NCBI GenBank assembly: GCA_965603515.1
Contig: CBFDDH010000007.1
Coordinates: forward strand, 1,231-65,230
Length of the DNA stretch: 64,000 nt
Direction: 5' to 3'
From: an uncultured bacterium
Lineage (GTDB): Bacteria; Hydrothermota; Tepidihabitantia; SM23-42
Below the pieces are notes generated by a model, which saw nothing but the letters and a program-made list of their open reading frames with translations, was not told the DNA's origin and did no database searches. This document shows positions 2,605 through 60,077 of this stretch, one piece after another (positions within the stretch are counted from its first letter, which is position 1; the number at the start of each line of letters is the position of its first letter). A program made the translations under genes and the position numbers.

Positions 2605-4632
2605 TTATTCTTTAAGGCTATTAATTGCTTTCTGAAAGTCCTTTAAATCAATAGGTACGAGCTTAATCGATGACAAGAATTCAAGAAATCCTTCAATGTC
2701 CAGATTCAAATAGTGATCTTCGATCTGCATATCAATTGGCAGGTCATAAAGGTAGGCGCCGCTGCCCAAGGCGTCTTCAAGTCTGGCGATATTTCTTCTG
2801 ATCACTTTCCTTATCGCTTCCTTTTCAGGTATTGGAAAGGCACTACCAGCCAATATCTGGTGGTTCAGGATCAACATTTTACCCTCAGCATCCAGCGCAT
2901 CCTGACTTTGTTCAGAAAGTGCATCAGCAATGATAAACCCGTACAAGTGCCCAAGCAAATGCAGAATATATGTATTACCACGATCAAAAGTTATCGGGAA
3001 TTCCATCACGCCCATATCTGGACAGATGCGCTGTTTCAATACCGACGCTAGCATATAGCTATAATTTCCCTCACCTTTTCCTTCAAAGACCTTAGCGACA
3101 GCTGGAGAATCGCCAATACATTTTGCGAGAACTCTTTTTTCCTTTTCCAAAATTCGTACGGTCTCCCAGCAACGACCGCTAAGGATAAATTTTTGCTTAA
3201 GATGGAAAATCCGACCTATGAGTTTATTGGACTCAACACTTATGACGTCATATTCGCCAAACGCCACATCCGCGATGTTCGAATGTATCTTTCCCCAACG
3301 TATCTTCTCTTCAAGTTCATAACCGTCGAAATATATACCTGGTCTGTTCTCTTTCACTTTTCCATCATCGATCAATTTCTTAAATGCAGTTCTTATCTGT
3401 GTTTCAGTATAGACCGGTACTAAGATCCTATATATGCTTTGCAGGGTTGTTCCAATGCGCTGGCGTTGATATAAATAAGAGTAGATCTGCTGCGGTATTA
3501 CTGATAATGAAGGTTGATAGCGTTTCTCAAACAATTGCCCCTTGATCGCACAGTCAAAATAGATCTCAAACAGCATTCTTTCCCATGTATTCGTATAGAT
3601 ACCTAGCGCGAACAACTTGTTGGTACGGCGATTCCCCCGACCTATCCTCTGGAGTAACGAAGAGATATCAAACGGCGGTCGGTAAAGAACCACACAATCC
3701 ACATCACCGATATCGATCCCCAGTTCAAGTGTAGAAGTGGCGCATAAAATGCCGATTTCACCCTGATTCATCCTGTGTTCAACTTCTTCACGCCGCTGTT
3801 TTTGAAGACTCGCATGGTGAACAAATACGGCATCATGGAACGGTGGTCTATTAAATTTCCGGGAGAAGAGTTCAGCCAGACTCCGGGCATTAAAAAAAAT
3901 GAGTATCTTCTTAAACCCCCTTTGCTTTGCTAATCGAAAGACTTTTTGAATAAAATCATCTTGTTCAATCAACTCATACTCTATCTCACGCGTCGATTTC
4001 AAAAAACATACTTTTGCATCATCAAAATAGTGTGCTCCGATATCCATATCGTCAATCGTTGCGGAAAGAGCACAATACTGGAGTTTATCATGGAATTTTC
4101 GCAAACGTTTGAGCAGAACCCTCAACTGGTCGCCGCGCGGCGTATTATCAAGCAGATGTATTTCGTCAAGCACTACCGCACTCAGCGTCTGTAAAACACG
4201 TGGTTTGCGAGCAAGCATCGAATCAAAAGACTCGGGTGTGGTGAGCAAAACTGCAGGCAGATGTTTCAAATCAAGTCGTGGTCGATCACCAGTCTTGCGC
4301 CCCAGTTCTACACCAACATAGGTTACTGGATCGACTAACCTACGAAAGAGATCATTGACAAGCGCTCGGGTTGGCGAAACATAGAGTATCTTCAGCGCGT
4401 TTAAAGACTGCCCCTGGGTATCTCCAAGCATATGTTCTACCAGCGGCGCGATCACCGCCTCGGTTTTCCCGCTCGCCGCAGGTGATATCACTACCACGTT
4501 TTCATGATTTAGAATATGGGGAATAGTCAATTCCTGAATCGGCAAAAAATTCCCAAACCGACTGAAAAACGGCATCCAGGTCCTTCGTAGTCGTCGTTTA
4601 ATATCGTTTGCAGATGTAATGGTCATTATCAT
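2605..4632 (-). CDS. Lhr-like DEAD/DEAH-box SF2 helicase (BrxHI-like)
   Basis: Q motif FLPIQ, ASGKTEA, TTPES, DEIH, SAT, TSTLELGIDIG, QRIGRGNR. Confidence 0.9.
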   Translation of the reverse strand: MIMTITSANDIKRRLRRTWMPFFSRFGNFLPIQELTIPHILNHENVVVISPAASGKTEAVIAPLVEHMLGDTQGQSLNALKILYVSPTRALVNDLFRRLVDPVTYVGVELGRKTGDRPRLDLKHLPAVLLTTPESFDSMLARKPRVLQTLSAVVLDEIHLLDNTPRGDQLRVLLKRLRKFHDKLQYCALSATIDDMDIGAHYFDDAKVCFLKSTREIEYELIEQDDFIQKVFRLAKQRGFKKILIFFNARSLAELFSRKFNRPPFHDAVFVHHASLQKQRREEVEHRMNQGEIGILCATSTLELGIDIGDVDCVVLYRPPFDISSLLQRIGRGNRRTNKLFALGIYTNTWERMLFEIYFDCAIKGQLFEKRYQPSLSVIPQQIYSYLYQRQRIGTTLQSIYRILVPVYTETQIRTAFKKLIDDGKVKENRPGIYFDGYELEEKIRWGKIHSNIADVAFGEYDVISVESNKLIGRIFHLKQKFILSGRCWETVRILEKEKRVLAKCIGDSPAVAKVFEGKGEGNYSYMLASVLKQRICPDMGVMEFPITFDRGNTYILHLLGHLYGFIIADALSEQSQDALDAEGKMLILNHQILAGSAFPIPEKEAIRKVIRRNIARLEDALGSGAYLYDLPIDMQIEDHYLNLDIEGFLEFLSSIKLVPIDLKDFQKAINSLKE

Positions 4633-13338: not shown

Positions 13339-13881
13339 TCAATTCCGGATGTCTGGCAATTCAATGGGTGATACTCCTTTAGCGTCACCCAAAATTTCAA
13401 TTTTCTCCAAATACGGATCAGCTCTCAACCCCCGACCTTCAATGACTGTACCATCTTGTTTAATTATCGTCACGGGACAGTCAGTCAGTATCTTTTGTGA
13501 ATCATTTTGCCAGAACAGAGAATCCGTGTAGAGCTTGGTTGAATCGTTTGTCAACACCACAACACTGTCGCCAACAAGAATATTACGCGTTTTCGTATTG
13601 AGTATACCTGCCGGTGCGTACAGCACGGAAAACTCGACTTCTTCCCTATCATAGAATCGTATCTCAACGGAATCAACCTTGATTATCTCATCATATACCC
13701 TTGCTCGTACAGCATCAAGGGTATAGACTTTTTTCCCTTTGCTCGTTTCTGTAAGTGAGAACGTATCTATTGTTATCTTGGGCTGACCATCATCTAACCG
13801 TTCTTGCAACTTCTCTTCCTGGCAACCGGTCAATAGAACTAACCCGACAATTAGACATATCTGCAGGACTTTATGTTTCAT
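13339..13881 (-). CDS. lptC: LPS export protein LptC
   Basis: N-terminal anchor, TKLYTDSLFW, ILTDCPVTI, IEGRGLRAD; synteny with lptB. Confidence 0.85.
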   Translation of the reverse strand: MKHKVLQICLIVGLVLLTGCQEEKLQERLDDGQPKITIDTFSLTETSKGKKVYTLDAVRARVYDEIIKVDSVEIRFYDREEVEFSVLYAPAGILNTKTRNILVGDSVVVLTNDSTKLYTDSLFWQNDSQKILTDCPVTIIKQDGTVIEGRGLRADPYLEKIEILGDAKGVSPIELPDIRN

Positions 13882-13896
13882 ATATTCAAAATCCTC

Positions 13897-14538
13897 TCAG
13901 TCTGTTCTCGACTTGTAAAACCAGACATAATCAAGCGGTCGCTGAGTAACTATGCGATCTAGATCACACCCGAGATCGAGAACACCGCTACCATTCTTGC
14001 GGTAAGCTGCAAAGGGTACAAGTGGAACGCCGCATAGGCTGCTCAATTTCTTCATCTTACCGTATTTCGCATAGAAACGGTTGCCGTCAATAAGGACACC
14101 CAATATCCCACCGTTTTTAAGGAAACGCACGATTTTCACACTGTCGTGTTTTGAAAAGACCTTCACGTTACCTGACGACCGGAAGCGATCCAGGAGATTA
14201 TCGAAAAATCTACTGATGCGTGAGTGATTATCATCAGCATACCGGTTAACAAGCACACCTAAATCAAAACCCTTTTTCTCAAGTGCCCGGGGCATCAGTT
14301 CCCAAACACCGAAATGGAAAGAATAAAAAATACCACCTTTTTCCAAACTATTACTATTGTCTTGCACGCTGATGTCTCGCCGGCTCAACATAAATCCGAT
14401 ATTACGCGCGACACTATAGACATTTCTTATCGCCAGTCTTCCAATACGCTGCTTCAGGTATTCACGGCGCGCTCTCTGAAACCAGTACAATGTAAACAAC
14501 CCCAAAAGCGCAAACGCTTCTGTGAAAAATCGCATCAA
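13897..14538 (-). CDS. Lysophospholipid acyltransferase family protein (LpxL-like)
   Basis: FHFGVWE motif, GVLIDG, CGVPLVP. Confidence 0.7.
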   Translation of the reverse strand: MMRFFTEAFALLGLFTLYWFQRARREYLKQRIGRLAIRNVYSVARNIGFMLSRRDISVQDNSNSLEKGGIFYSFHFGVWELMPRALEKKGFDLGVLVNRYADDNHSRISRFFDNLLDRFRSSGNVKVFSKHDSVKIVRFLKNGGILGVLIDGNRFYAKYGKMKKLSSLCGVPLVPFAAYRKNGSGVLDLGCDLDRIVTQRPLDYVWFYKSRTD

Positions 14539-36136: not shown

Positions 36137-38254
36137 ATGAAATACATCATAGTCATGACTGTTGTGGTCGCCAGCTTCATTTTTGCCGATAATCTCGTAA
36201 CCAACGGCGATTTTGAGCAGGAGCTGACCACCGGATGGTTAGAGTATTCTGGCGGGATTACTGATTCAATTACACGTGCCGCAACCTATGATCCTGACCC
36301 GGATTACGAGGCGTTCGTGTATCGCGCATCAGAGGGTGGTTACAGCAAATTATATCAGATAATTGATATCCCCTCTACGGATCTTGATTTCTCAGTGAAT
36401 GCGAAACTATATGCATATGATAATCACACCAGTGCGTGGACTGGCGCAAGCGTAATGATATCATATCTTAATAACAGTGGTTCTGTGTTGGGAGCTACCA
36501 GGATCTGTGCTCGCTCCACTCAGTGCCCATGGAATAATTCATCTACAATGCATATCATAGCGGCTGTTGACTCATTCTGGCACAACTACTCATTCAATAT
36601 CGAAACAGAACTCGCAAACCTCTCTGCTGTGAATCCGACAGATGTGAAGAAAATAGAAATAGCTCTGTTCGATTCAACTTATCATTGCTGAGGGGCGACA
36701 GAAACGGCAAAGGTCTTTGCCGATGATGTCGATCTTGATTTTACTGTAACGGGTGTATATCTTGCTTATCGCGATGATACAATAGATGATCAAAGTGGTA
36801 ACAATAATGGCGTGCTTGATCCGGGTGAAACGGCTGACATAAGTGTCCGTATCAAGAATTTTGGTGACCAGACCGCCACAAATGTATCAGGGACGCTCAG
36901 GACTTCATCTCCAGATATTACCATCAATGATGACTACGGTTACTGGGGGACAATTGCGCCAAGCGATAGCGTTGAGAATACAGCAAATCCATTCAATGTA
37001 ACAGCTAATGGCTCAAGCTCTGCTGGAACAGTTGTCGATTTTGAACTGGAAGTGACTGATACTGACAGATACACAGATACCCTGTACTTCAGTATCATCA
37101 TAGGTGGTGAAGGATTCGATTATGTTACCCATAACTGCGGTAATGTAAAACTCACGGTGACAAGGTATGGCACGTTTGGATACATGTCTGCTTTTGCACC
37201 CAATCCTGGAGACGGTTTCTGTTATCCCATAACAAGTAATAGCCACTTGTTCATAGGAACGTTCGCCGCCGGCAATAGTGCGGCGTACTGTGTTGACCGT
37301 TTCTTTAAAGGTGGTACAGATGACGACGACTGGCATACCACAGGTGTTCCTGACGGTATGGTAAGGATGTTTGAACCTGGTCCTGATGATTGGGATGAAT
37401 ATGCAACGGCACATTTTGATGACGCCGGACACGCTTCTCCACAGGATTTAGTAGTTGAACATCACTCCTGGGCATGGGATGATGCAAATGCAAATGATTT
37501 TGTAATTGTCAAATTCATATTACGTAATGAAGGGAGCACAACACTGAGTAATCTCTATGCGGCCACGTTCATGGATTGGGATGTCGGAACTGCAACAAGC
37601 AATCAGGGTTCATCTGATGCGGCGCGAAATTTAACCTGGCTATACCAAAATACACCGTATGTAGGCGTAGCTATCCTCGATCCGCCACGAACCACAACTG
37701 CGGCAAATCTTTCATTGGTTAGCCATAAAGACTATGTTTATCCGCTTAATGGCTTACCAGATAGCGTGATGATCCAGTTTATGGATGGAACAATTCAACA
37801 AGCGACCACAGATACTATTTATGATTGGTCAGCATGCAACTCATCAGGTCCATTTACACTTGCGCCTACAGACACATTTACTGCTGCCTTTGCAATCCTG
37901 GGCGGGGATAATCTCAGCGACCTTCAGGAAAATGCTGATACTGCTTACAATCGTTACTGGGGTAATATCGGAACCGAAGAGTGGAGTACTCCATCCCCTG
38001 CAAATATCAGTCTATATCCAGCGATCTCTCATGGTAAAGCCTACACAATTGTGTACAGCATGTCAGTTGAAACACCTGTACATGTGAAAGTGTATAATAC
38101 AGTTGGTCAACTATTAAAAGAACAGGACTTTGGTAGAATATCAGGTGCAGGCGAATTAAAACTGGATATCTCTCATTTTGCTCAGGGTGTGTACTTTGCT
38201 CAAATCGAATATGGGAATACGAAACAGACTTCAAAAATCATCTGGTTAAAATAA
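36137..38254 (+). CDS. Secreted jelly-roll/Ig-like protein with C-terminal sorting-type domain; one 705-aa ORF if TGA 36689-36691 is decoded (putative selenoprotein, motif HC-U-G)
   Basis: Track ORFs 36137..36691 and 36812..38254 share a frame; the 40 intervening codons are open; SECIS-like hairpin follows. Confidence 0.8.
36696..36731 (+). promoter_or_regulatory. SECIS-like stem-loop
   Basis: CGACA/TGTCG lower stem, CGGCAAA/TTTGCCG upper stem, GGTC loop 20 nt after TGA. Confidence 0.75.
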
Positions 38255-41267: not shown

Positions 41268-42467
41268 TTACAGAATTATTAGTTTCTTTGTCATTGTTGT
41301 CGTATTTACTCTGAGTCTGACAAAATAAATACCTGAAGTAACGCGCCCCTTTTCCCAGACGTGTTCATGCATACCTACATCTTCAGATTGACTGACCACA
41401 ACATCAATCAGCCTGCCATCTGCAGAATAAATTTCTACACTAACCGGGGTGATTTCTGTCAGTGAATATCTTATGTGCACGATTTCTTTTGTCACATTAG
41501 GAGTAACCGCGAAGTTAGAGATTATAGTCTGCTCTGTTTCTTCCACACCCGGATTAAACGCGTTCTGGTAGTATCTAATATAGCCATCAAAATCACTCGT
41601 TAGGATATCGACCGCACCATCTCCATTGTAATCTATAAAGAAAGGTCTATTGGCTTGATTCCCACCAATGTAGGAACCGCCTGATACCTTTAATGTATCA
41701 CGAACATTGAATATTGGACTGGCATTTGTCCCGACATTCTTGTAGAAGTAAATGTATGTATATTGATCGCCCAAGATAAGATCTTTTAGCCCATCGCCAT
41801 CAAGATCGCAGATCCTCGGGGTAGCTCGATAATGATAGATCGGACTACCACCGCAGTTAATATAACTGAACGTAGTGAAGACAGGGTTCGCATTGGTGCC
41901 TTGGTTAAGATAAAGCCTAACTGTTCCCGTACCAGATTCTGATCCTATTATCAGATCTTTTTTACCATCTTCATTCCAGTCTACCACATCGGGATTAGCA
42001 TTGTTACCCACATCGATCTTTATACCATTTGCCCGCACTGTATCCAACAATGTTAAACCACGAGCTTCCTCTAGATACAACATGGTATAACCGTTTCTGT
42101 CACCGACAAGAATATCTCTTTGTCCATCTTCGTTCCAATCGCACACGGCGATCGCTGAGCCCTGACATCAGGACGCATAGACGGAAATGGGAGATCCGTC
42201 GGCCTGCAAATACTGAAATGAGATGTATGAAGGATCCTCATTTGTCCCGTAATTTTTATAGACACGGACATAGCCAGAAGAATACTGGCCTGTGACCAAA
42301 TCCTTTACATTATCACCATCCCAGTCATAGTAAAATGGAGAGCCGTACCAGGTTACATCGATTATACTCCCATTTGCCAATACATACTCGCCAGTTTCAA
42401 AAACCGGCGTCTGTGCGTGTACTGCAAAGAGAAAACCGATGATTAGTATTGCACATGCAAGTCTCAT
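41268..42467 (-). CDS. Secreted FG-GAP repeat protein with C-terminal sorting-type domain; one 399-aa ORF if TGA 42168-42170 is decoded (putative selenoprotein, motif AS-U-C)
   Basis: Two track ORFs in the same frame; sequence reads ISVYAS*CQGSAIAVCDWNEDG, placing the TGA inside an FG-GAP repeat; GGAGGAG RBS before ATG 42467. Confidence 0.8.
42136..42154 (-). promoter_or_regulatory. SECIS-like stem-loop
   Basis: CGATCGC-CGTGT-GCGATTG; loop 20 nt after TGA. Confidence 0.65.
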
Positions 42468-42676
42468 ATGTTCTCCTCCTTTCTCTACTATAATCATATA
42501 TAAATAGAGTAATTTGTCAAGAGACTTAAGTGCATATCGGCAAAAGCAAGCAGGACTTAACAATCCGGCGTCAAGAGATTGACAATGAATTTAATACATA
42601 AAGAAACCCCTTTGTGAACCTTGACTTTTTACTGAATATTACTATAATACACACTTAACATAAAAGGAGGTATTAT

Positions 42677-44278
42677 ATGTTACTATTGCTTATTATTTTT
42701 GCATTTCCCTCGACATTCGGTAGCAAAGGGATTCTTCGTGCAAAGAGCGGCGATGTAGAGTGGCTATCTGAGGCGCGCTCCATACTGACCATCAGTGTCG
42801 ATGGTGAAGGATACAGATACGATTATGATGATACTCTTTTCGATTATGGAAGTGGAAGGGTCATCATAGGTTACACACCGATCAAACGCTTTGAAGCATA
42901 TACACTGTGGCGTGGTCATGGGGATGGGACCGTGCGTCAACCCTTTGCTGACAGTGATTTCGAGGGTGACCTCGGTGACCTGGATATTGGGGCAAAGGTC
43001 GTGCTCAAGAAGTTCAGAAACTCATACCTGAGCAGTGACCTGGCTCTCACTATACCTATTGGTAGAGAGCAATATTCAAATGATGGCTTCATCATATATC
43101 CAAAAGCTATCTTGACTTTTGACTGCGGCGACTACTGGCGCTTATTTCCAATTCGCATACATCTCAACGCAGGTTTCCCTATTGGCAGAAACGATCTATC
43201 GGACAATTTCCCTGTTACCTTTGTAACTGCGTTTGAACTACCCTCAAAACTATTCACATACTTTATCGAGATAAGCAAAATGCACGAACGCGACTGGAAT
43301 TGGCGTTTTACGCCCGGCTTGAAGCTCCATCCATTCAACAGAATCTGTCTAACCATTGGTGCTGATCTAGGAGCTACTGAAGATTACTGGCTAGTAGGTG
43401 CTAGCGCAGGTCTAGCAGTGAGTTCAGTGCTTGTAAAAGAACGAGAAACACGGCCAACCGGTAATATCGCTGGAGAAATAAGAGATCGTACAACTGATGC
43501 ACCAGTAGCTGCTAATGTTATGCTCCTTGAGCTCGATGAAACCGCATTTGCGAGCGAGAATTTCGGTGTTTACAAGCTTATTGGTGTACCGAGAGGAGTG
43601 TATACGCTGCTGGTACAGGCACCAGGTTACGCTGCTGAAAGCAGAATGGTAATTGTGGAGCGGAATGAAACAAGTGTGCTCAATTTTGATCTAGTACGGG
43701 CTATGGTGACCTATCAGGGTATTGTTCTGAACGCAAGTACCGACCAACCAATAAACAATGCCGCGATATATCTGGAAGGTGAAGCAGGAACCACAGCACT
43801 CACTGATATTGATGGAACATTCGAGGAAGTCCTGAAACCAGGAGCCTATGAACTAAAAGTAAACAAAAAAGAATTTGCCCAATACATCAGCACATTCTCG
43901 ATATATGATGACCGCCAAGATACAATCTGGCTAAAACCTATTGCAGCGATTGATGAAACCCCAGAAGCCATCGTATACTTTAATATTGACGATGCAAACA
44001 TACGCGATGATCAGAAATCAACGCTCAATGATATCGCTGAATTTCTAAAGAGCCATCCAAGTGTGAGATGTGAACTTCGAGGTCATACAGATCCATCTGG
44101 CAATATCGACTATAATGAAATTCTTTCACTCGCACGTGCCAATAGTGTAAAAGACTACCTTGTCAAGGTCTACGGAATTGAAAAACAACGGATTTCAACC
44201 CTGGCATATTCCAGGACAAAGCTCGTTAGAGAAAATCCTGAAAAGAGTAGAAGAGTCGAAATATTCTTAATTAAATAG
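42677..44278 (+). CDS. OmpA-family protein: probable N-terminal beta-barrel, two carboxypeptidase-regulatory-like domains, C-terminal peptidoglycan-binding domain
   Basis: VYFNID..GHTDPSGNIDYNEILSLARA..V..YL..SRRVE. Confidence 0.85.
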   Translation: MLLLLIIFAFPSTFGSKGILRAKSGDVEWLSEARSILTISVDGEGYRYDYDDTLFDYGSGRVIIGYTPIKRFEAYTLWRGHGDGTVRQPFADSDFEGDLGDLDIGAKVVLKKFRNSYLSSDLALTIPIGREQYSNDGFIIYPKAILTFDCGDYWRLFPIRIHLNAGFPIGRNDLSDNFPVTFVTAFELPSKLFTYFIEISKMHERDWNWRFTPGLKLHPFNRICLTIGADLGATEDYWLVGASAGLAVSSVLVKERETRPTGNIAGEIRDRTTDAPVAANVMLLELDETAFASENFGVYKLIGVPRGVYTLLVQAPGYAAESRMVIVERNETSVLNFDLVRAMVTYQGIVLNASTDQPINNAAIYLEGEAGTTALTDIDGTFEEVLKPGAYELKVNKKEFAQYISTFSIYDDRQDTIWLKPIAAIDETPEAIVYFNIDDANIRDDQKSTLNDIAEFLKSHPSVRCELRGHTDPSGNIDYNEILSLARANSVKDYLVKVYGIEKQRISTLAYSRTKLVRENPEKSRRVEIFLIK

Positions 44279-44369: not shown

Positions 44370-46631
44370 CTATTTTACGAGTATCAGTTTTTCCAGGTAG
44401 TCTGTATTTTCAGTTTTGAGTTTGCAGAAATAGATACCAGCCGAGACTCTATTATCTTTCCCATCAAAACCATCCCATGAGATTTTGTGCGTTCCAGCCT
44501 GTTTGATATCATTAATGAGATTCTTAACCAATCTGCCCTGAATATCATAGATAGACAGTTCGACTGCTGTTTGTCTGGTCAATTGAAAATTCAGTACTGT
44601 CTGCCCTTTTGCCGGATTGGGTTTTGCGAAGAAAACAAACCTACCGATAGATTCTTCTTTGCTTTCTTCAGCGCCAACCAGAAGTGACCAACGGTATGTA
44701 CTACTACCATTTGTACCGGCAAAAATGTAGTTATTAGGATTAACATCAAGGCAATTGATATTCATTACGTCAAGCCCATCGTTCATCGACTCCCACGAAC
44801 TGCCATTATTCGTACTGCGGTACACGCCGTTGCTATAGGTTCCAGCATATATCATCGTGGCATCTGTAGATGTATTATCAATAAGGATTGTATTGGTTCG
44901 GCCACCGCTGAATCCAGTAGTCGCCCATGTCGATCCACTGTCTGTTGATTTATACAGGTTGATCGATGTTCCCGTATACATAATATTTGTATTGTCAGGA
45001 TCAACTACCAGGGCATAGACATAACCAGACAGACCAGTAGTCGGTAATTTTGTCCAGTTACTTCCACTATCAGTCGTTCGGTATATCGCTGAACCGCTTT
45101 CATAACCACCTGCGTACACGATATTCGAATTGCCAGGATCCATAGCCATGGCGTATAAATATCCAGTGCTCGAGCCAATCGTGTACCGCGTCCAACTGTC
45201 TCCTGTATTGGTAGTCTTTGAGACTGACATCTTATACAATGAATCACCGGGGTCGTAATAGCGTCCACCACACCAGAATATCGAATTGTTGCTGTGGTCA
45301 CAAATAAAATCTCCACCATCCGCATAGTAAAGGTCTTTGACGTTCCAGACGGACCCGCCGTCTGTGCTCAAGTAGAGCTCTGAATTGCCTCAGCCCGAGC
45401 CCTCAAAACCAAAAACAAGATCCGGGTCAGTATTGTGTACGCCAAAAGCACACAGCGCGCCGCAGGTTGAAGGCGTCGGCAGCAGGTCCCAGGCAGAACC
45501 GTTATCAGTTGTCTTATAGACACCAACATTTTCAAACTCTGTATACAAGGTTGCTGGTGATGACGGAGCAAGACCGATATCATTTATTTCTCCAAGGTAC
45601 ATTCCGTTTATCGCAGCAGCCCATGTCGTACCCATGGTTGTGGACTTGTAACATCCCGCGTTATTACCAACATACACATTTGAAGTACTAACCGGGCTGA
45701 TCGCTAAGCCCCAAAAGTAGCTACCATCAAGCCCTGAACTAAAAGAAGTCCAGGTAAGCCCAGCATCGGTGCTCCGGTACACTGAAGAATATGCAGTTGA
45801 AAACACAAGATCCGGATCGAGTGATGAGGTTGCCATACGGTAATTATAGAAGTATGTGGAAACCTTCGTCCATGAACCTCCATTGTCAGTCGAACGATAG
45901 ATACCATCAGTGTAAGTACCTGCGTACACGATATTCGAGTTGGTCGGATGAACGGCCATTGAATAAGTATAGTAGCCTGACGTAGCTGCCCAGGTAACAT
46001 CAGTGAAGTTCGAACCGCCGTCAGTTGATTTGAAAACTCTGGGATAGTATGTCGTAGTGACATACTCAGACCCGCCCACGAATATGGTATTCGGTGATGA
46101 CGGATCTATTGCCACACACCAGCCATAGCAATAACTGCCATTACTGAGAACAGTGGTCGTGGTCCATGTCGAACCGCTGTCTGTGCTCTTTATGAATACC
46201 ATATCGTAAACACCAGAGGCAATATATTTCCGACCTGCGCCCACGATAATAGATGGGTCAGCCGGATGCACGGCAAGACCATAAACATAGACGCTTGTTA
46301 CAGTCCCAGATGTCCACGTCGCACCATTGTCAGTCGATTTCCAGACGCGACCATAGTAACCTGAGTATAGATTATCCGATGGGTCAATAGCCATACAATA
46401 GTTGTAACCATTATATGAACCGGTCCTTGTCCATGAGGCACCGGCGTCGATTGATCTAAAAATCTTGCAGGGATACGAATACGAAGCGGCATAGAGAATA
46501 TTCTCATTACTCGGTGAAACCACGACTGAACGGATATTCCCACCTGCAGGTCCAATCGCTTCCCAAGCTCCATATGAGAGGGCACATAAACAAATGAGTG
46601 TTACTACAACTAATACTTTTTGCATAAGCAT
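44370..46631 (-). CDS. Secreted BNR/Asp-box beta-propeller protein with FlgD-Ig/sorting-type C-terminus; one 753-aa ORF if TGA 45390-45392 is decoded (putative selenoprotein, motif SG-U-G)
   Basis: Two track ORFs in the same frame; reads FGFEGSG*GNSELYLSTDGGSVW, so the TGA is inside a blade; many S-T-D-x-G-x-x-W repeats. Confidence 0.8.
45346..45364 (-). promoter_or_regulatory. SECIS-like stem-loop
   Basis: Perfect 7-bp CAGACGG-CGGGT-CCGTCTG; loop 32 nt after TGA. Confidence 0.7.
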
Positions 46632-47072: not shown

Positions 47073-47663
47073 ATGCGAACAAAAGAACAACATACCCGGG
47101 AGAAAATCATAAACTGCGCCCTGAGGATATTCGCCAAAGAAGGTTTTTTCAAAACAACTGTCGATGATATCGCCCAGGCCGCAGGTCTTGCCAAGGGTAC
47201 TCTCTATCTATATTTTAAGGATAAGGCTTCCTTATATGTCAGTGTCATTGAAGAACATTTTAAAACAGGTATCGATTATTTACGTGGAGTTGAAAAAGAA
47301 TCAATAACATCCACAAGAAAACTAAAAAAAATAGCGGATGAGTGGATCGATACCATGATCCGTCTGAAAAGTTCTTTCTTTATGTTCTCCATGGAAAACA
47401 TAAATCTTTCCAGCAAGATCATGAAGGCGGTTAAACCGATAATGAATTTCCGCCTGAAAGAGATGATCGATATTATCGCAAAGATCATTGAACAAGGTAT
47501 CGCAAAAAAAGAATTCAGAAAAATTGAACCGCAGGTCGCAGCCTTGCATTATCTCAACACAATACGTACTGGATTCTTTGTTAATTTCATTGTACCAAAG
47601 AAACAAATAGACAAAAATGAAATACTTGAACTATTTTTTAATGGTTTGAAAAGAAGGAGGTGA
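47073..47663 (+). CDS. TetR/AcrR family transcriptional regulator
   Basis: IFAKEGF..TTVDDIAQAAGLAKGTLYLYFKDK HTH. Confidence 0.95.
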   Translation: MRTKEQHTREKIINCALRIFAKEGFFKTTVDDIAQAAGLAKGTLYLYFKDKASLYVSVIEEHFKTGIDYLRGVEKESITSTRKLKKIADEWIDTMIRLKSSFFMFSMENINLSSKIMKAVKPIMNFRLKEMIDIIAKIIEQGIAKKEFRKIEPQVAALHYLNTIRTGFFVNFIVPKKQIDKNEILELFFNGLKRRR

Positions 47664-47664
47664 T

Positions 47665-48255
47665 ATGAAGAAACTTTGCTTATTGAGTTTACCCCTATTT
47701 GTCGCGGCAGCTAATGGAAACAACGGAATCATGCTTTCCTTTAGTCCCCATTACTCTTATAATTACTTGTATCAAGATGATAAAGATCCAAGAGGTAAGT
47801 GGGGGTTTGGTGGCGAGCTGGAGATAAGGAATTTCATACCACATATAGGTTTGAAACTCAGAGGCAACATGGCAACCTATCCGGCAGTAGCCAGCACAGA
47901 TACTTATGAATATGGATTTATCCCGCTGACGCTATGCACGAGCTTCGACCTTCTCCCCTTTATTGAGCCCACCTGGTTCAGCCTTACGCTTGAAACAGGT
48001 TTTGGACTTTATCTATGGCGTGCTCAAGACAACGGTTCAGTCGTTGTCCTGCCTGATAATACAGAAATGTCAGAAAGGGACGTCGGTTTTGTCGGCGGTT
48101 TATCTCTGCAGGTCAGGCCTTACAAATTGATCGCCTTAGAAATAGCAAGCCGCTTTAATTATATTGCGAGCTCAGACCTTGAGAAATACGGATATTCTGA
48201 CAAAGATGAAAAACTATGGGAAAACGGGGTTGGATTGAAAATAATCATGCCTTGA
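47665..48255 (+). CDS. Outer-membrane beta-barrel protein (8-strand type probable)
   Basis: Signal peptide, alternating aromatic beta strands, terminal GVGLKIIMP. Confidence 0.65.
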   Translation: MKKLCLLSLPLFVAAANGNNGIMLSFSPHYSYNYLYQDDKDPRGKWGFGGELEIRNFIPHIGLKLRGNMATYPAVASTDTYEYGFIPLTLCTSFDLLPFIEPTWFSLTLETGFGLYLWRAQDNGSVVVLPDNTEMSERDVGFVGGLSLQVRPYKLIALEIASRFNYIASSDLEKYGYSDKDEKLWENGVGLKIIMP

Positions 48256-48274
48256 TAAATGTATTGGAGGTAAA

Positions 48275-49546
48275 ATGCTAATAGTGTTAATTTTTTTCAT
48301 GAACATAAGCCTTGGTGATACGCTCAACATCACCATTGAATATGCCATCGAATATGCTCTTGAGAACAACCCGGAGATAGTACAATCAACTCTGGATTTC
48401 AAGACCTCACAAGCGAAAGTTGATGAAGCGCGATCCGTGTTCTACCCCAATATATCAGCCAGTGGATATTATGCTTATCTGAGTGATGTCGCTGTCTTTG
48501 AGTTAGACAGCATGCTCATACCCATGGGACAGCATGAAAACTACAACTACCAGATCTCTCTACAACAGGTTCTTTTCACGTGGGGTAAGATATACAATGC
48601 ATATAGGATTGCTGGTCTTGGTAAAGATGTTGCGCAACTCAATATTATACGAAAGAAACAGGAAGTACGTAATTCAGTAACTGATGCATTTTATGGTCTT
48701 CTCGTACTAAAAGAAATGGTAACGCTCTCGCACGAAAGCTTGCTTCAACTTGAGAGACATGCAAACACAGTTGGAAAAAGGTATAAGGCTGGTCTGGTAC
48801 CTCAATTTGATTTGCTCCGCGCCCAGGTACAGGTGGCAAACCTTAAACCGCAATTGATCGAGGCCGAGAATGGCTTAAAACTGGCTCAGGAGGGGTTTAA
48901 AATGCTTCTGGGGTTACCCCTGCAACAGGAATTCAAACTCACCGGTGAACTGCAAATGGTCGATGAGGAATTCGATATCGATGACCTGATCACAACAGCA
49001 CTTGAAAATCGCATTGAATTGAAGAACCTTAACAAACTCACTGACATTGCAAAATACAGCAAGGCGATTGCGCGTCGCGCAAACCTGCCGACCTTAGTTG
49101 CAGGTGCAACGTATGTACGCACAAAGCCTTTCGGTTTTGGTGGAAATGATTGGGGGACAAATATCACCTTTAATGTCGGTTTTGAATTTCCCATATTCAC
49201 TGGTTTCAAGAATCTTGCTCAATACAAACAAGCAACCCTGCAACTGACAGGAGCAAGGCTTGCATTCGAGAATTTGGAAAAAGGCATTACGTTTGAAGTA
49301 AAACAGGCCTATTACAATCTCCAGGCCGCAAAACAATCCATTGCCGCAGCCCAGGATAATGTTACTCAGGCGGAAAAAACATACAAGATCATCGATATCA
49401 GATACCGCAATGGTTTGGCGACAAACCTGGAATTCATGGACGTTCAACTTGCTGCAATGCAAGCAAGAACAAATTATCTCTCGGCACTGAAGAATTACTA
49501 TACGGCAAAAGCCGAGATCAAAAAAGCAATTGGTAAGGAGGAATAG
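48275..49546 (+). CDS. TolC-family outer-membrane efflux protein
   Basis: ALENNP, FYPNIS, RYKAGL...DLLRAQ, RYRNGLATNLEFMDVQ. Confidence 0.93.
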   Translation: MLIVLIFFMNISLGDTLNITIEYAIEYALENNPEIVQSTLDFKTSQAKVDEARSVFYPNISASGYYAYLSDVAVFELDSMLIPMGQHENYNYQISLQQVLFTWGKIYNAYRIAGLGKDVAQLNIIRKKQEVRNSVTDAFYGLLVLKEMVTLSHESLLQLERHANTVGKRYKAGLVPQFDLLRAQVQVANLKPQLIEAENGLKLAQEGFKMLLGLPLQQEFKLTGELQMVDEEFDIDDLITTALENRIELKNLNKLTDIAKYSKAIARRANLPTLVAGATYVRTKPFGFGGNDWGTNITFNVGFEFPIFTGFKNLAQYKQATLQLTGARLAFENLEKGITFEVKQAYYNLQAAKQSIAAAQDNVTQAEKTYKIIDIRYRNGLATNLEFMDVQLAAMQARTNYLSALKNYYTAKAEIKKAIGKEE

Positions 49547-50431
49547 ATGCGCAAGTTCATAATTATTTCAGTTATAGTAATTGTCTTAGCTGTCGCCGTC
49601 ATAATCAGAGTCGGTGTTCTTAGGAAACCTACCGAACAGGAAGAAGCTGAGAAGATAGTCCCGGTTGAGATCTTTCCGGCACTGACCGGAAATGTACAAA
49701 GTACATGCGAGATCATCGGCACAATAAAGGCAAATAAAACTGCATATGTCTTCCCCGAGACAATGGGTCGAATCACACGTATCCTGGTTAAAGAAGGCAC
49801 TTACGTTAGCAAAGGCAGTAAACTCATGGCTCTGCGTAACGAGACAATAGGTTTTGAATACGAAGAAGGTTACATCACTGCCCCGATCAGCGGCAATATC
49901 GCGAATATCGTAGTCGACAATGGCTCGATGGTCACTCCGCAGTCGTCAGTAGCCATGGTCGTTGAATTTTCAAGGGTCAAGGTTTCCTTCAATGTATCTG
50001 AGAATGCAATGGATTGTATAAACAAAGGCGGCAAAGTTCGCGTTATGGTCGATGCCGCACCTGAGATTCAATTCAACGGCACAGTATCAGAGGTAAGCCC
50101 GATCATTGATCCGTTGACCCGAACTGTGGCCGCCAAGGCAGTCGTTAGTAATCCAAAAAAGATACTGAAACCAGGTATGACCGCTCGCGTAACACTGAAT
50201 TTAGGTTCCAAGGAAAATGTACTGGTGATACCACGCGACGCTTTGCTCGACGGTTATCTATTCATCGTCAAGGACAGTACATCAGAACGCCGCGATGTCA
50301 TTGTTGGTTTAATCGGTGATGAATTCGTGGAGATCCTCGATGGGATAGAAGAAGGCGAGCAGGTCGTGGTAGTCGGACAGCAAAGACTCGCCGGTGGAGA
50401 GAAGATCAATCCGATTCCAAGGAGTGAATAA
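49547..50431 (+). CDS. RND efflux periplasmic adaptor (MFP)
   Basis: ITAPISG, LKPGMTARV, VEILDGIEEGEQVVV. Confidence 0.9.
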   Translation: MRKFIIISVIVIVLAVAVIIRVGVLRKPTEQEEAEKIVPVEIFPALTGNVQSTCEIIGTIKANKTAYVFPETMGRITRILVKEGTYVSKGSKLMALRNETIGFEYEEGYITAPISGNIANIVVDNGSMVTPQSSVAMVVEFSRVKVSFNVSENAMDCINKGGKVRVMVDAAPEIQFNGTVSEVSPIIDPLTRTVAAKAVVSNPKKILKPGMTARVTLNLGSKENVLVIPRDALLDGYLFIVKDSTSERRDVIVGLIGDEFVEILDGIEEGEQVVVVGQQRLAGGEKINPIPRSE

Positions 50432-53400
50432 TGAACCTTACTGAGATATCGATAAAAAGACCTCTTACCGTGCTAATGGTTTTTCTCGGCGTTATACTCT
50501 TCGGCTTTATCTCGGTCACTAACCTGCCGGTCAACCTTTTCCCGGATGTCACCTTTCCCATGATGTTCATTATGACAAGTTATCCCGGTGCAGGTCCGGA
50601 AGAAATAGAAACGCAGATAACTGACCCGCTTGAAAAAAGCCTCGGTACGGTGAATAACCTCGATAAAATGACATCAACGACATCAGAGAACCTTTCTCTG
50701 ATCTTTATGCAATTCGATTGGGGAGCAGATATCGACGCGGCATCAAATGACGTACGCGATGTATTGGGCTTTATAACCCCGTATTTGCCGGAAGACGCAG
50801 ACTACCCGCTCATCTTTAAATTCGATATTTCACAACAACCGGTTGTCATGTATACGGTAGGCGGTGATATCAACCCGCTTGAGCTGGATGAGATCGCTGA
50901 GGGTGTTGCAGATCAGCTCCAGCGTGTGGGCGGTGTTGCCGCATCGTATGCTATGAGCGAAGCCATGAAAGAAGTACAGATAGTACTCGACCCGCTCAGA
51001 CTGAAAGGAACCGGGATAACTTCGGAACAAATCATCAATGCGCTTCGGGCCCAGAACATTAATTATCCACTCGGTAATATAGAAACCGGGAACAAAATTT
51101 ATATCGCAAGAACGATCGGTGAATATGACAACCTCGAGGAGATCAGAAATACGGTTGTTGGTAGTAACAACGGCATACCGATACTGCTCTCCCAGATCGC
51201 TGATGTCCGTTCATCACCATCTGAACAGACCTCTGTCTCGCGAACCAATGGCGTTCGTTCATTATGGGGTTTTGTACAGAAGCGAACTGATGCCAATACG
51301 GTGACGGTCGCGACCGCGGTCGTTAAAGAACTTGAAAAAATAAAAGAAGACCTGCCGCCAGGTGTCCAGGTCGACCTTATTTTTGACCAGGCAGACTTTA
51401 TCAACCGTTCTGTACGCAGTACTGCAGAAACCCTGATCTTCGGTGCGATCCTCGCTATTGTCGTCCTATTTCTTTTCCTTGGCAGTTTCCGCTCAACCCT
51501 GTATATGGCAGTCGCAATACCCATCACCGTCTTTTTCTCTCTCTTTTTCATGTATCTCTCCAATCTCAGTCTCAATATCATCTCACTTGGTGGTCTAACG
51601 ATCGCAATAGGTATGGTCCTCGATTCAGCGATCGTTGTCTTTGAGGCAATATTCCGCCACAAAGAAAAAGGAGAAGATGCCAAAAAAGCTGCGTGCGCTG
51701 GCGCTGAAGAAGTAACCGCCGCGATCACGGCATCGACCATGACCACGGTCGCGGTCTTTTTACCGCTCCTTTTGGTCAGCGGTCTAGCTTCGGTATTCTT
51801 TAAGCCATTAGCACTTACCGTTACCTTTGCTCTTGTCTCGTCTCTTTTAGTGGCCTTAACGATCATCCCGATGCTTTCGGTGCGCTTCAAAACCATGAAA
51901 CGCCGGGCATTTGGTCAACGACTGGCAAATTTCTATGTGCGCGTTGAAAATGTATACACGCGTATCATTAAGTGGGCACTGCAACATAGATTGATGGTAA
52001 TACTCGTCACCCTTGGTGTCTTCGTTGTCAGTCTGGGAGGTCTGGTACCTTTGATAGGCACCGAGTTAACTCCCCAGGTAGACCAGGGCGAGATCATTAT
52101 CAACGCTGAAATGCCAGTCGGTACAAATATGTGGGTAACTGATTCGGCAGTCAAAAAACTTGAAAAGATCGTCGCCGAGGAAGTACCTGAGATCGACATC
52201 ATGTCGACATCAATAGGTGCTGGTTCCGGTGGTATGATGAGTCTATTCATGTCCACCGCGGGTCCTCACTCTGCTCAAATATGGATCGAACTTCCTCATC
52301 GTGAAAAACGTGCGCGTTCAGTCTTCGATATTCAGCGTGACCTGCGACCCAAGATAGAGAATATCATTCCAGGATTAAAAGTAACATACGGTCAGGATGA
52401 TTTCTCCATGTTCGGCGGAGGCGCCGCTATCGAGATCAAAATTTTCGGATATAGCCGCGAAAAAGCAAAGAATATATCTGATGAATTAATAGATACGCTT
52501 CAAACCATTGAAGGACTCGTTGGTCTTGAATCGAGCTTTGGCGAAGGAAAACCAGAATACCAACTGCTCATTGACCGCCGCAAAGCCGCGAACTTTGGAC
52601 TCACACCTTATCAGATCGGCAGCGTCCTGCGTTCACGTCTGGAAGGCACGGTAGCCAGTCAATTCCGAGAACAAGGTAATGAGTATGACATTAAGCTCAT
52701 GATCGACAAAAAATACAGGAATGACCTTAAGAAAGTGATATCGATGACGATAACGACCCCGGTCGGCGAGGTACCATTACAAAATTTTATCAAGGACACA
52801 ATCGCAATAGGACCTGTTTCAATTGACCATGAGGATAATAAACGTATTGTTACGATCACCGGCAGTGTTGAAGGACGCGATATGGGCAGCGTTGCAGCCG
52901 AAGTTCAGAAGATAGTCGATGAAATGCAAAAACCCGCCGATTTCATCGTTGAGATGGGCGGCGGTTATGAAGAACAGATGAACACGTTCAGGGATCTTGG
53001 TTTTGTTATATTACTCGCGCTTGCACTTGTTTACATGATCATGGTCGGGCAGTTTGAATCGTTCAAAGAACCTTTCATTATCATGTTCACAATTCCGCTT
53101 GCTCTCATCGGTGTCGTATGGATGCTCTTTTTTACCGGCACGACGATCAATATGCAAAGCCTGATGGGTGTACTATTGCTCGGCGGTATCGTGGTCAACA
53201 ATGCGATCGTTTATATTACCTATACTAATCAGCTGCGCCGCGAGCAAGGTATGTCGCTTTTTGATTCTGTAGTCGAGGCCGGAAGAGTCCGTCTTAGACC
53301 TATCCTTATGACCGCACTGACCACCAGCTTTGGGTTGATCCCCATGGCACTCGGTATCGGAGCTGGCAGTGAGATGCGTGCGCCCATGGCAAGATCAGTC

Positions 53401-53514
53401 ATCGGTGGATTGTTAATTTCAACATTCCTGACCCTCGTGTTCATCCCCGTAATATACACGCTTTTCGAGCGGAAGAAAAGACCGAAGGAAAACCTGAGAA
53501 AGCAAAGATCATAA
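50431..53514 (+). CDS. RND efflux permease (AcrB/AcrD/AcrF family)
   Basis: SIKRP, GMVLDSAIVVFE, GIVVNNAI, RLRPILMTALTT. Confidence 0.95.
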   Translation: MNLTEISIKRPLTVLMVFLGVILFGFISVTNLPVNLFPDVTFPMMFIMTSYPGAGPEEIETQITDPLEKSLGTVNNLDKMTSTTSENLSLIFMQFDWGADIDAASNDVRDVLGFITPYLPEDADYPLIFKFDISQQPVVMYTVGGDINPLELDEIAEGVADQLQRVGGVAASYAMSEAMKEVQIVLDPLRLKGTGITSEQIINALRAQNINYPLGNIETGNKIYIARTIGEYDNLEEIRNTVVGSNNGIPILLSQIADVRSSPSEQTSVSRTNGVRSLWGFVQKRTDANTVTVATAVVKELEKIKEDLPPGVQVDLIFDQADFINRSVRSTAETLIFGAILAIVVLFLFLGSFRSTLYMAVAIPITVFFSLFFMYLSNLSLNIISLGGLTIAIGMVLDSAIVVFEAIFRHKEKGEDAKKAACAGAEEVTAAITASTMTTVAVFLPLLLVSGLASVFFKPLALTVTFALVSSLLVALTIIPMLSVRFKTMKRRAFGQRLANFYVRVENVYTRIIKWALQHRLMVILVTLGVFVVSLGGLVPLIGTELTPQVDQGEIIINAEMPVGTNMWVTDSAVKKLEKIVAEEVPEIDIMSTSIGAGSGGMMSLFMSTAGPHSAQIWIELPHREKRARSVFDIQRDLRPKIENIIPGLKVTYGQDDFSMFGGGAAIEIKIFGYSREKAKNISDELIDTLQTIEGLVGLESSFGEGKPEYQLLIDRRKAANFGLTPYQIGSVLRSRLEGTVASQFREQGNEYDIKLMIDKKYRNDLKKVISMTITTPVGEVPLQNFIKDTIAIGPVSIDHEDNKRIVTITGSVEGRDMGSVAAEVQKIVDEMQKPADFIVEMGGGYEEQMNTFRDLGFVILLALALVYMIMVGQFESFKEPFIIMFTIPLALIGVVWMLFFTGTTINMQSLMGVLLLGGIVVNNAIVYITYTNQLRREQGMSLFDSVVEAGRVRLRPILMTALTTSFGLIPMALGIGAGSEMRAPMARSVIGGLLISTFLTLVFIPVIYTLFERKKRPKENLRKQRS

Positions 53515-58784: not shown

Positions 58785-60077
58785 CTAACGAACTTTGACT
58801 ATCTTTTGCATTATTTTGCCGTCTATCTCAATAAAATAAATGCCGGGCTGTACGTGCAAAACATCGATCTGTCGCCCGGTGATATCGTAGACATCACACT
58901 TCTTACCGGCAGGTAAGTACAACGGTCCGCTGATTATTGTAGCATGGAAGAATTCGTTATCTTGCCAAAAACCTGGTGTCTGTTCTACACCGAGTTGAAT
59001 ATCCAAATTACCAAATATATCATAGTTACCCCCGCAGAATTGTTGCCAGGCCACCAAAGACTCAGCATTACCGATCGCCAAAGACGGGAAATCGCGGGTG
59101 CAACTTACTGTATCTGAAATCCGGAAGTTGCTGCCAACAAGTTCCCCTGACATTGATACGCGCTGGCCAAAAATGGCGCAGTCCTGGCTCCACACCACAA
59201 GATAAAAACTATCACCAGCGCAGACGCGTGCTCCGTATTGATAGGGAGAATCATCTGCAATGGCGATAGCAGCGCCGATCAGATCGCCATCTACTGAAAC
59301 GAGCTGTCCATACACATCATCATCATAGTATGGTGACGGCTCGTTCCAAACAACCAGATAACTACTATCACCAAAAGCAATATCCGGGTCTAATAGGGCA
59401 TCCTCTGACAATACTCTGATGACAAACTCATGATCTTCAGGCTGACATTCAGAGTTTATGAATCGACCGAAAAGACCAGCTGGGTTATGGTTATAGTTAT
59501 ACCAAACCGCAAAATACCGCTCACCATCAAAAGCTACGGCTGGTCGGTATTCACAATAAGCCCCCATGCCAAAAACCACACCAGAATCAAGAACTGCGCC
59601 GTCAGGGGTCACACGCGCTGCCTGAACCTTGTATTCACCGCCAAAAGTACCGTCTGACCAGACTACCAGGTAATTATCACCACCAAAAACGATATCTGGT
59701 TCGCGCGAGACTTCGCTATCAGCTTTCACAAGTATCGTGTTTAGCATCTGAAGCTCTGGAGTGACCCGCACCCCGATTATATTTCCGATATTTCAACAAC
59801 CGTAGCGGAAAACAAATAGAAGGTTCTGTCCATCATAGGCAGTACGGATACCGTATGTTGAATACCCTTGATAAAAGAATACGCCGGTCGAGTCAATCAC
59901 CGTGCCGTCTGGTTTCACGCGTGCACCATAAATTGACATTGACTGCCGGAAATCTGACCAGAACACATAATATAAACTGTCAACAAAGATAACACTTGGC
60001 TGAAATTGAGATTCCGAGTGTCCACATATAGTGAAATCAGCATTTATAAAAACTAAACATAAGCTAAGTAGAAACAT
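58785..60077 (-). CDS. Secreted beta-propeller-like repeat protein with C-terminal sorting-type domain; one 430-aa ORF if TGA 59793-59795 is decoded (putative selenoprotein, motif GC-U-N)
   Basis: Two track ORFs in the same frame; reads FRYGC*NIGNIIGVRVTPE; the repeat unit YLVVW..I.G.RV..DG occurs on both sides; the only signal peptide is upstream of the TGA. Confidence 0.8.
59758..59774 (-). promoter_or_regulatory. SECIS-like stem-loop
   Basis: GGGGTG-CGGGT-CACTCC (one G-U pair); loop 24 nt after TGA and identical to the loop at 45353-45357. Confidence 0.62.

Follow-up and report, generated by a model that had tools for sequence, protein, structure and literature searches.

A predicted family of exported beta-propeller selenoproteins with a candidate SECIS element in the codons of an Asp-box

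In bacteria, the selenocysteine insertion sequence (SECIS) has a small apical loop that contains G (PMC1088965), and this loop lies 16-37 nt from the UGA codon (PMC10778597). The great majority of bacterial selenoproteins are redox enzymes of the cytoplasm for which Cys forms are widespread, and most search pipelines rely on the pairing of selenocysteine (Sec) with Cys (PMC1088965, PMC12013277); the usual discovery criterion is the presence of Cys homologues that align with the UGA, the Sec/Cys pair (PMC1088965). Here we report the analysis of a gene with one in-frame UGA codon that encodes a double beta-propeller with a sorting domain of the type IX secretion system (T9SS), located in a 64,000-nt stretch of DNA from an uncultured bacterium of the Hydrothermota (GTDB lineage SM23-42; assembly GCA_965603515.1, contig CBFDDH010000007.1, positions 1,231 to 65,230), which is referred to below as the window. 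The UGA, codon 414 of this gene, is very probably decoded as Sec by ordinary SECIS-directed insertion, as judged from the comparison of related loci, and the gene and its relatives, designated BNR(U), are best read as a new family of T9SS-exported selenoproteins in several candidate phyla.

The family so predicted is atypical, being exported, lacking Cys forms, and carrying its candidate SECIS element within an Asp-box together with a spacer hairpin. Because BNR(U) proteins would be exported and have no Cys forms, standard selenoprotein searches would miss them. The open-access literature, including the 2025 deep-Sep paper, the 2026 BSepDB paper, and a 2026 review, yielded no reference to selenoproteins of the BNR/sortilin, FG-GAP, or T9SS kinds, or to selenocysteine in WOR-3 or Fermentibacteria.

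The gene and the conservation of its UGA codon

The read-through gene (46631..44370, minus strand) starts with ATG at 46631, ends with TAG at 44372..44370, and comprises 753 codons plus the stop. Its single internal TGA is preceded by 413 codons and followed by 339 with no gap. The upstream ORF (open reading frame; 45390..46631) and the downstream ORF (44370..45371) share one frame, and no other stops or frameshifts occur within the 753 codons. The read-through product contains Sortilin-Vps10/BNR propeller repeats (Pfam Sortilin-Vps10, 1.9e-33) and ends in a T9SS sorting domain, which is detected both by Por_Secre_tail PF18962 (39.7 bits against a cutoff of 27, residues 671-750) and by TIGR04183 (43.7 bits against a cutoff of 23, residues 671-751); an N-terminal hydrophobic leader (MLMQKVLVVVTLICLCALSYG) was read by eye from the sequence. 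The overall architecture consists of this by-eye signal peptide, two BNR/Asp-box propellers, and the T9SS sorting domain. Since the sorting domain is encoded 3' of the UGA, it is made only when the UGA is decoded. Decoding would yield a full-length double beta-propeller of about 750 residues whose T9SS tail presumably directs it to the cell surface or the medium, and reading of the UGA as a stop would yield a product without the sorting domain. An exact sequence look-up of the 413-aa ORF gave no record, and NCBIfam has no model specific to the BNR(U) family.

Relatives were collected with a degenerate DNA pattern for U-G-x-x-E-L-Y-x-S-T-D-G-G, in which several bases of the 5' arm of the downstream hairpin were fixed, and its 3' arm and the wobble positions cited in the next section were left free. 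The scan returned 69 TGA sites in 67 loci, nearly all of them in metagenome-assembled genomes (MAGs) of WOR-3/Stahlbacteria or Fermentibacteria. At all 69 sites, about 400-450 open codons precede the TGA and about 320-345 open in-frame codons follow it. In a codon-free scan of GTDB genomes (E-G-x-G-NNN-G-...), each of the 68 sites recovered had TGA and was known from the first scan, with no Cys, Gly, or Trp codon at the column of codon 414 (the U column). The closest genome is a Candidatus Stahlbacteria (WOR-3) MAG with 92% identity; a Fermentibacterales MAG with 43% identity has TGA at the identical column, and the local protein identities at which the UGA is kept in these two are 95% and 47%. 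The UGA is also kept in a third lineage, the KSB1-type MAGs. Carriers of the gene include complete chromosomes, namely CP070705.1, CP070795.1, and CP070686.1 of WOR-3 and OY970370.1 of Fermentibacteria. No fewer than 14 database homologues, with identities of 35-63%, have lengths of 414-416 residues and end in ...LEGxG, which shows that gene callers cut them at this codon. The residues directly 3' of the TGA (G-x-x-E-L-Y) are conserved across the family, and no conserved start codon follows them. Two independent marine-sediment metagenome assemblies have the window TGA unchanged, and a metatranscriptome from the same sample contains both gene halves at similar depth. A further metagenome scan with N-terminal alignment, in which a generic Asp-box peptide served as the pattern, returned only distant BNR paralogues (24-35% identity).

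Multiple copies of the BNR(U) gene were observed in a number of genomes: two sites each on L135 and L136, and copies on Stahlbacteria MAG contigs (L103, L154, and L159) and Fermentibacteraceae BB12 contigs (L107, L114, and L121), arranged as tandem pairs or spread over up to three contigs per MAG. The occurrence of several copies in many genomes indicates that the family grew by duplication with the UGA retained.

Two close exceptions to the UGA were found. In a WOR-3 copy, P0005 (L008/L009, 3202..5467), the column holds GGA (Gly), and the identical downstream hairpin is retained. This gene has a frameshift about 150 codons upstream, while the same contig keeps a UGA-bearing gene of the 36137 type described below; P0005 may be a recently decaying or converted copy. 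A first-pass annotation of the window had named Trp or Gly at this column in homologues as evidence against Sec, and the one Gly relative that came to light is this frameshifted copy. A UGA-free homologue with 33% identity, P0004, has a diverged loop (...ALTSALYSTPRLY...), and the first of the two Cys residues upstream of the U column is replaced by Ala in it.

The frameshift in the related copy P0005 (locus L008) might suggest a pseudogene, or the TGA might be a sequencing or assembly error, yet the same TGA occurs at 69 sites in two phyla plus the third lineage, and two independent marine-sediment metagenome assemblies cross the window TGA unchanged. The 753 codons are otherwise intact, and the local protein and RNA are under strong purifying selection. 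We regard this explanation as effectively refuted by the conservation data and its probability as close to nil.

Alternatively, the UGA could be a true stop that ends a 413-residue periplasmic propeller, with the downstream frame being a separate gene or untranslated and the RNA structure serving in pausing or mRNA stability. Gene callers annotate the locus in this way, TGA is a regular stop in this genome, and some termination is expected at any Sec codon. What makes a true stop very improbable is the presence of 320-345 in-frame open codons after each of the 69 TGA codons, with G-x-x-E-L-Y conserved and no conserved start among them. Moreover, the downstream part alone would have no signal peptide and the upstream part no sorting domain, and the structural model of P0005 places the stop column between strands 2 and 3, where the product would end mid-blade.

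Elsewhere in the window TGA behaves as a normal stop. Of the 45 window ORFs with a length of 180 aa or more, TAA closes 16, TAG 15, and TGA 14; 12 of these TGA codons mark the ordinary end of a gene. Ten genes of the BNR(U) family themselves terminate with TGA, and long window genes carry zero or one internal TGA. Since TGA ends ordinary genes, the genetic code is not reassigned. A code in which UGA is sense everywhere (code 25 with Gly or code 4 with Trp) would be in line with at least one database FG-GAP protein (P0143) that is translated with Trp at the corresponding codon; the 12 long window ORFs other than the candidates that end in TGA with no plausible continuation, the TGA ends of the ten BNR(U) genes, and the limit of one internal TGA per long gene leave such a reassignment refuted by stop-codon usage and virtually without probability. 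A TGA at 13897..13899 (minus strand), which joins the ORFs 13897..14538 and 13339..13881, resembles an ordinary stop and served as a negative control: the next ORF has its own ATG a few codons on, and there is neither a comparable hairpin nor a nearby Cys.

Hairpins downstream of the UGA

Downstream of the UGA, the RNA contains 11 nt, a mini-hairpin of 4 bp, a single A, and the main hairpin of 7 bp, which is written into the codons of the next Asp-box (Table 1). The distance from the UGA to the first base of the main loop is 32 nt and to the stem base 25 nt. When each is folded in isolation, the energy is about -5.7 kcal/mol for the mini-hairpin and lies between -11 and -12.6 kcal/mol for the main hairpin. 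The 7-bp stem with its CGGGU loop at +32 agrees with the published distance and loop criteria for bacterial SECIS elements, and across the family the main loops are AGGUU, CGGGU, and AGGCU, with G always at loop positions 2-3. Both hairpins, the position of the TGA 5' of the S-T-D-G-G-x-x-W box, and the Cys residues 24 and 20 positions upstream had been described in the first-pass annotation, and all of these coordinates were confirmed.

The hairpins are strongly conserved. In 63 distinct 60-mers, all four pairs of the mini-hairpin are invariant and 99% of the cells of the main hairpin are paired, against 29-41% with a slid partner; changes in the main hairpin are limited to G-C to G-U. All seven main-stem pairs form at 65 of the 69 UGA sites, whereas the 174 other [ST]TD[GA]GxxW motifs of the same genes form between one and six of the seven (mode 3-4) and none forms seven; across the family this lies well outside what chance would give. 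The synonymous codons are skewed accordingly. Over the mini-hairpin, Glu is encoded by GAG at 63 of 63 sites (55% gene-wide), Leu by CTC at 62/63 (23% gene-wide), and Ser by AGC at 68/69 (24% gene-wide), and the variable residue x has an NNG codon at 62/63; over the main hairpin, Thr is ACA at 64/69 (26% gene-wide), Asp is GAC at 67/69 (50% gene-wide), and Val is GTC at 67/67 (29% gene-wide). The Gly codon immediately after the UGA uses all four wobble bases. The residue that precedes the Asp-box Trp is Val at 67 of the 69 UGA sites and Thr, Ser, or Asn in the other Asp-boxes of the same genes, a bias which indicates that the RNA requirement shapes the peptide. Because the 3' arm and the cited wobble positions were free in the search pattern, the result at synonymous sites is not circular. 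This skew indicates that both hairpins are under selection at synonymous sites, and it is the decisive RNA evidence. An additional small hairpin that includes the UGA itself (UGAG/UUCA) appears in the single-sequence minimum free energy (MFE) structure; it was not counted, as its positions vary freely in the family.

In the proposed mechanism, SelB, whose role is presumed here, would bring Sec-tRNA(Sec) to a SECIS stem-loop located within the gene immediately 3' of the UGA, and the 7-bp hairpin with the G-rich five-base loop over the codons T-D-G-G-S-V-W would be this SECIS element. The mini-hairpin probably folds out, which would place the main loop at an effective distance of about 19-20 nt, as in the other candidate Sec genes of the organism. 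Subtraction of the 13-nt mini-hairpin from 32 nt leaves 19 nt, compared with 20 nt in two families whose SECIS elements are supported by covariation; the 20-nt spacing reported earlier for two other sites was recovered for the loops that follow the UGA codons at 36689 (plus strand) and 42170 (minus strand).

The mini-hairpin stem is frozen at positions that are free with respect to the protein, most clearly at the third base of the variable codon (G in 62 of 63), which supports a functional role for it. The KSB1 subfamily of BNR(U) has no mini-hairpin and a different main hairpin, AACCAC-AGAUG-GUGGUU, with the loop at +26; the mini-hairpin is thus confined to genes in which the main hairpin lies at the greatest distance from the UGA. 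The chances that it serves to bring the SelB-binding loop effectively closer to the UGA are, on this comparative evidence, about even; it may instead act through coaxial stacking or as a pause element at the mRNA entry site. Since +32 already lies within the published range of 16-37 nt, the notion of a displaced SECIS is not strictly needed.

Selenocysteine genes, the Cys partner, and other UGA-containing genes

Genes for Sec synthesis adjoin members of the family in related genomes. A tRNA-Sec gene lies beside BNR(U) in L101 (a WOR-3 MAG), L110, and L118 (ARAGORN; Rfam RF01852 with 68-74 bits against a gathering score of 47). The order selD(UGA), tRNA-Sec, BNR(UGA), FG-GAP(UGA) was found in L118/L164 (1..5640), L165, and L166, which belong to KSB1/Zhuqueibacterota-type MAGs, and a Calditrichaceae MAG (L170) has selD(U), tRNA-Sec, and FG-GAP(U) with no BNR gene. 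Altogether, tRNA-Sec adjoins candidate Sec genes in L101, L110, L118/L164, L165, L166, and L170. The selD gene of these islands itself has UGA at the position of the catalytic Cys (...VKCAG-U-ASKLS...; TIGR00476, 377 bits). The earlier proposal that G-UGA-G is a Sec codon agrees with the 69 conserved TGA sites, with a codon-free scan that returned TGA only, and with the adjacent tRNA-Sec and selD genes; each element of the first-pass interpretation that lent itself to a test was borne out. An S-adenosylmethionine riboswitch (RF00162, 76 bits) was observed in L110 at 4473..4589 (minus strand), at a distance of a few kb from both the BNR(U) and the tRNA-Sec gene.

On the protein side, a Cys 21-25 residues 5' of the U column is present in 62 of 62 distinct sequences, and a second Cys, four residues after the first, in 51 of 62. 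The upstream pair pointed out in the first-pass annotation is thus conserved as regards Cys390, while Cys394 is common and not invariant. In a partial structural model of the relative P0005 (predicted local distance difference test, pLDDT, 81), the U column is in the middle of an eight-residue loop between strands 2 and 3 of one blade, and the strand after this loop leads into the Asp-box turn; the column of the invariant Cys is in the loop that enters strand 1 of the same blade, and that of the second Cys is inside strand 1. In beta-propellers, the loop between strands 2 and 3 and the loop that enters strand 1 adjoin on the same face. With both loops adjacent by this standard topology, a selenenylsulfide is geometrically plausible: Sec414 would sit in the strand 2/3 loop and probably pair with Cys390 at the strand 1 entrance. 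Conservation and blade topology taken together leave the chances of a Sec414-Cys390 bond roughly equal either way.

The closest sequence and fold matches are GH74-type tandem propellers, with sortilin Vps10 and PorZ also found, all of them weak or partial: the GH74 sequence matches (E 1e-11 to 1e-7) are weak and at the level of the repeat, and the structural template modelling (TM) scores of 0.2-0.4 refer to a partial model. For this reason only the fold class is claimed, and the protein is not filed as GH74.

A frame-by-frame census with read-through translation revealed four long window ORFs with one internal TGA each, three of which have a recognised T9SS tail (Table 1). Each UGA is followed by a hairpin of 6-7 bp, and the loops of the 36137-type and FG-GAP genes share an N-G-(G/U)-N-U theme with the BNR loop. 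Cys is directly adjacent to the UGA at three of the four sites, and the fourth, BNR, has its invariant Cys nearby. The UGA of the 36137-type gene is kept in six further loci, and its stem shows a compensatory change from GGCAAA/UUUGCC to GGCGAA/UUCGCC by two synonymous substitutions. That of the FG-GAP gene is kept in L001/L103, L137, L118, and L160, with a compensatory change of the stem from CGAUCGC/GCGAUUG to CGGUCGC/GCGACUG and an unrelated stem, AUCCGC/GCGGAU, in L118. For the 430-residue protein at 60077..58785, neither Pfam nor NCBIfam gave a hit; its C-terminus is T9SS-like by eye, and no model detects it.

Table 1. Features of the BNR(U) gene and of the other UGA-containing genes in the window
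Feature	Position	Strand	Sequence or remark
In-frame UGA of the BNR gene, codon 414, proposed Sec codon	45392..45390	-	context G-S-G-U-G-N; G-U-G; loop CGGGU at +32
Local peptide			...TPSTC(390)GALC(394)AFGVHNTDPDLVFGFEGSG-U(414)-GNSELYL-STDGGSVW...
Peptide spanning U414			...VFGFEGSG-U-GNSELYLSTDGGSVWNVK
Peptide proposed as cross-link partner of the Sec peptide			...TPSTCGALCAFGVH...
Cys390, candidate selenenylsulfide partner	45464..45462	-	24 residues before U414
Cys394	45452..45450	-	20 residues before U414; second Cys of C-G-x-x-C
Mini-hairpin, 4 bp	45378..45366	-	GCUC-UACUU-GAGC; begins 11 nt after UGA; over E-L-Y-x-S codons
Main SECIS-like hairpin, 7 bp	45364..45346	-	CAGACGG-CGGGU-CCGUCUG; over T-D-G-G-S-V-W codons
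Asp-box, residues 422-429	45345..45368	-	S-T-D-G-G-S-V-W; codons double as main hairpin
T9SS type A C-terminal sorting domain, residues 671-751	44379..44621	-	PF18962 and TIGR04183
705-residue T9SS-tail protein (36137 type)	36137..38254	+	...STYHC-U-GATE...
TGA of the 36137-type gene	36689..36691	+
Hairpin of the 36137-type gene		+	CGGCAAA-GGUC-UUUGCCG; loop 20 nt after UGA 36689
FG-GAP propeller with T9SS tail	42470..41268	-	...VYAS-U-CQGS...
TGA of the FG-GAP gene	42170..42168	-	loop CGUGU at +20
430-residue protein	60077..58785	-	...FRYGC-U-NIGN...
TGA of the 430-residue protein gene	59795..59793	-
Hairpin of the 430-residue protein gene		-	GGGGUG-CGGGU-CACUCC; loop at +24, identical to BNR loop

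Several results weigh against the decoding of codon 414 as Sec. The BNR(U) family offers no Sec/Cys pair: the GTDB codon-free scan and the best 120 protein hits contain no orthologue with Cys at the U column, an unusual situation for a selenoprotein, and the sole substitutions seen are Gly, that is, GGA in P0005 and a genuine Gly in distant FG-GAP relatives. Neither tRNA-Sec nor any sel gene occurs in the window or within about 9 kb beyond its ends, and the machinery is thus shown only in related genomes; searches with E. coli queries found no selA or selB in the 1.07 Mb of DNA covered, a tiny sample of each genome. In the metatranscriptome, no RNA contig crosses the UGA. As to the RNA, no Rfam SECIS match was obtained for 45250..45450 at E <= 10 or for the whole window at the gathering score, and the fold of the single sequence is not significant (MFE -17.5 against -13.2 +/- 2.7 kcal/mol for shuffles, z -1.61), 13 of 200 shuffles folding as well as the native sequence. 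Finally, compensatory double changes were absent from the BNR hairpins among the 63 distinct 60-mers, and a count of pairs therefore proves nothing by itself.

Some of these results would also be expected if the UGA were read through without Sec, with Gly, Trp, or Cys inserted by a near-cognate or suppressor tRNA and the hairpins merely stimulating read-through. The GGA of P0005 is the only non-UGA codon at the column, distant FG-GAP relatives have a genuine Gly at their own U column, Cys-form orthologues are missing, and SelB was not seen in the 1.07 Mb. On the other hand, members of the family have tRNA-Sec and a Sec-dependent selD next to them in six genomes or more, the hairpins agree with the criteria for SECIS elements and have a loop motif common to four unrelated genes, the Cys next to or near all four window UGAs fits the chemistry of Sec and not that of Gly or Trp, and TGA otherwise serves this genome as a normal stop. 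We therefore consider insertion of a standard amino acid improbable and retain SECIS-directed insertion of Sec as the preferred reading.

The Gly codons have a further implication. Distant full-length FG-GAP relatives have a genuine Gly codon (GGT) at their U column, and together with the GGA of P0005 they suggest that Sec originated in Gly codons, by a change of GGA to UGA beside or close to a Cys, and not in Cys itself. The window genes also invite a wider and more tentative proposal, which we think somewhat more likely to be wrong than right, namely that anoxic-sediment bacteria of the WOR-3/Stahlbacteria, Fermentibacteria, and KSB1 type keep an exported selenoproteome. Its members, several unrelated families of T9SS cargo (the BNR double propeller, an FG-GAP propeller, proteins of the 36137 type, and perhaps the 60092 protein), would each have gained one Sec at a former Gly next to or near a Cys and would thus form extracellular selenenylsulfide sites. 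Their genes would lie in clusters, joined in some lineages to a selD-selC core as a selenium island, selenium supply would gate export, and in the two-hairpin SECIS of BNR the conserved spacer hairpin would set the distance to the loop that SelB binds.

Most database homologues of the FG-GAP protein begin shortly 3' of the TGA and are C-terminal pieces of about 290 aa. The public entry for P0143 (L160, 158..1393) shows Trp where the DNA has TGA, which indicates that a Mycoplasma-type code was applied at the source to a short contig. This mistranslation and the many half-length entries imply that public protein sets systematically misrepresent these families.

The neighbouring genes were also surveyed. 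Between the FG-GAP(U) and BNR(U) genes, 42677..44278 (plus strand) encodes an outer-membrane protein with an OmpA domain, whose PorE-like (T9SS) match is partial and, at 73 bits, far below the cutoff of 600. Directly upstream of BNR(U), an efflux operon (47073..53514, plus strand) is formed by the genes for a TetR-family regulator, a small unknown protein, a TolC-like channel, and the adaptor and permease of an RND system.

Comparison with known systems

If the proposed decoding is true, selenium use extends to the cell-surface or extracellular proteins of poorly known anaerobic phyla, Sec can originate from a Gly codon instead of Cys, and the family provides a natural SECIS element within a structural repeat motif, whose spacer hairpin offers a means to probe how distance governs SelB-dependent recoding. 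For annotation, it means that dozens of MAGs carry BNR(U) genes split in two, and that protein databases hold halves or mistranslated entries.

The RNA side of BNR(U) is closest to the SelB/SECIS genes of the E. coli fdhF type, with which it shares an in-frame UGA, an intragenic stem-loop with a small G-containing loop within 16-37 nt, the presence of tRNA-Sec and selD in carrier genomes, and the use of TGA as a stop otherwise. In contrast to these genes, BNR(U) is predicted to encode an exported, non-enzyme-like beta-propeller and not a cytoplasmic redox enzyme; it has no Cys forms (only rare Gly relatives), possesses a spacer mini-hairpin, has its SECIS over an Asp-box, and is known from sequence alone.

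The proposed Cys partner has parallels in other selenoproteins. Thioredoxin reductase (GCUG) likewise has a strictly conserved partner Cys, and its vicinal arrangement recurs in the three sister families of the window, which have C-U or U-C pairs. The 14-24 residue spacing of selenoprotein S (Cys174/Sec188; PMC3628699) resembles that of Cys390 and Sec414. Unlike in thioredoxin reductase and selenoprotein S, which have an unrelated fold and location, the bond in BNR(U) is deduced from conservation and blade topology.

As to fold, BNR(U) belongs to the same class of tandem Asp-box beta-propellers as the GH74 xyloglucanases, sortilin Vps10, and PorZ, none of which, to our knowledge, contains Sec. 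PorZ (5m11) is similar also in having two propellers and a T9SS sorting domain. Lastly, the islands with BNR(U) and FG-GAP(U) genes have as their core a Sec-containing SelD next to selC, as in the known arrangement, with the difference that the cargo attached to this core consists of predicted T9SS-exported propellers and not of known selenoenzymes.

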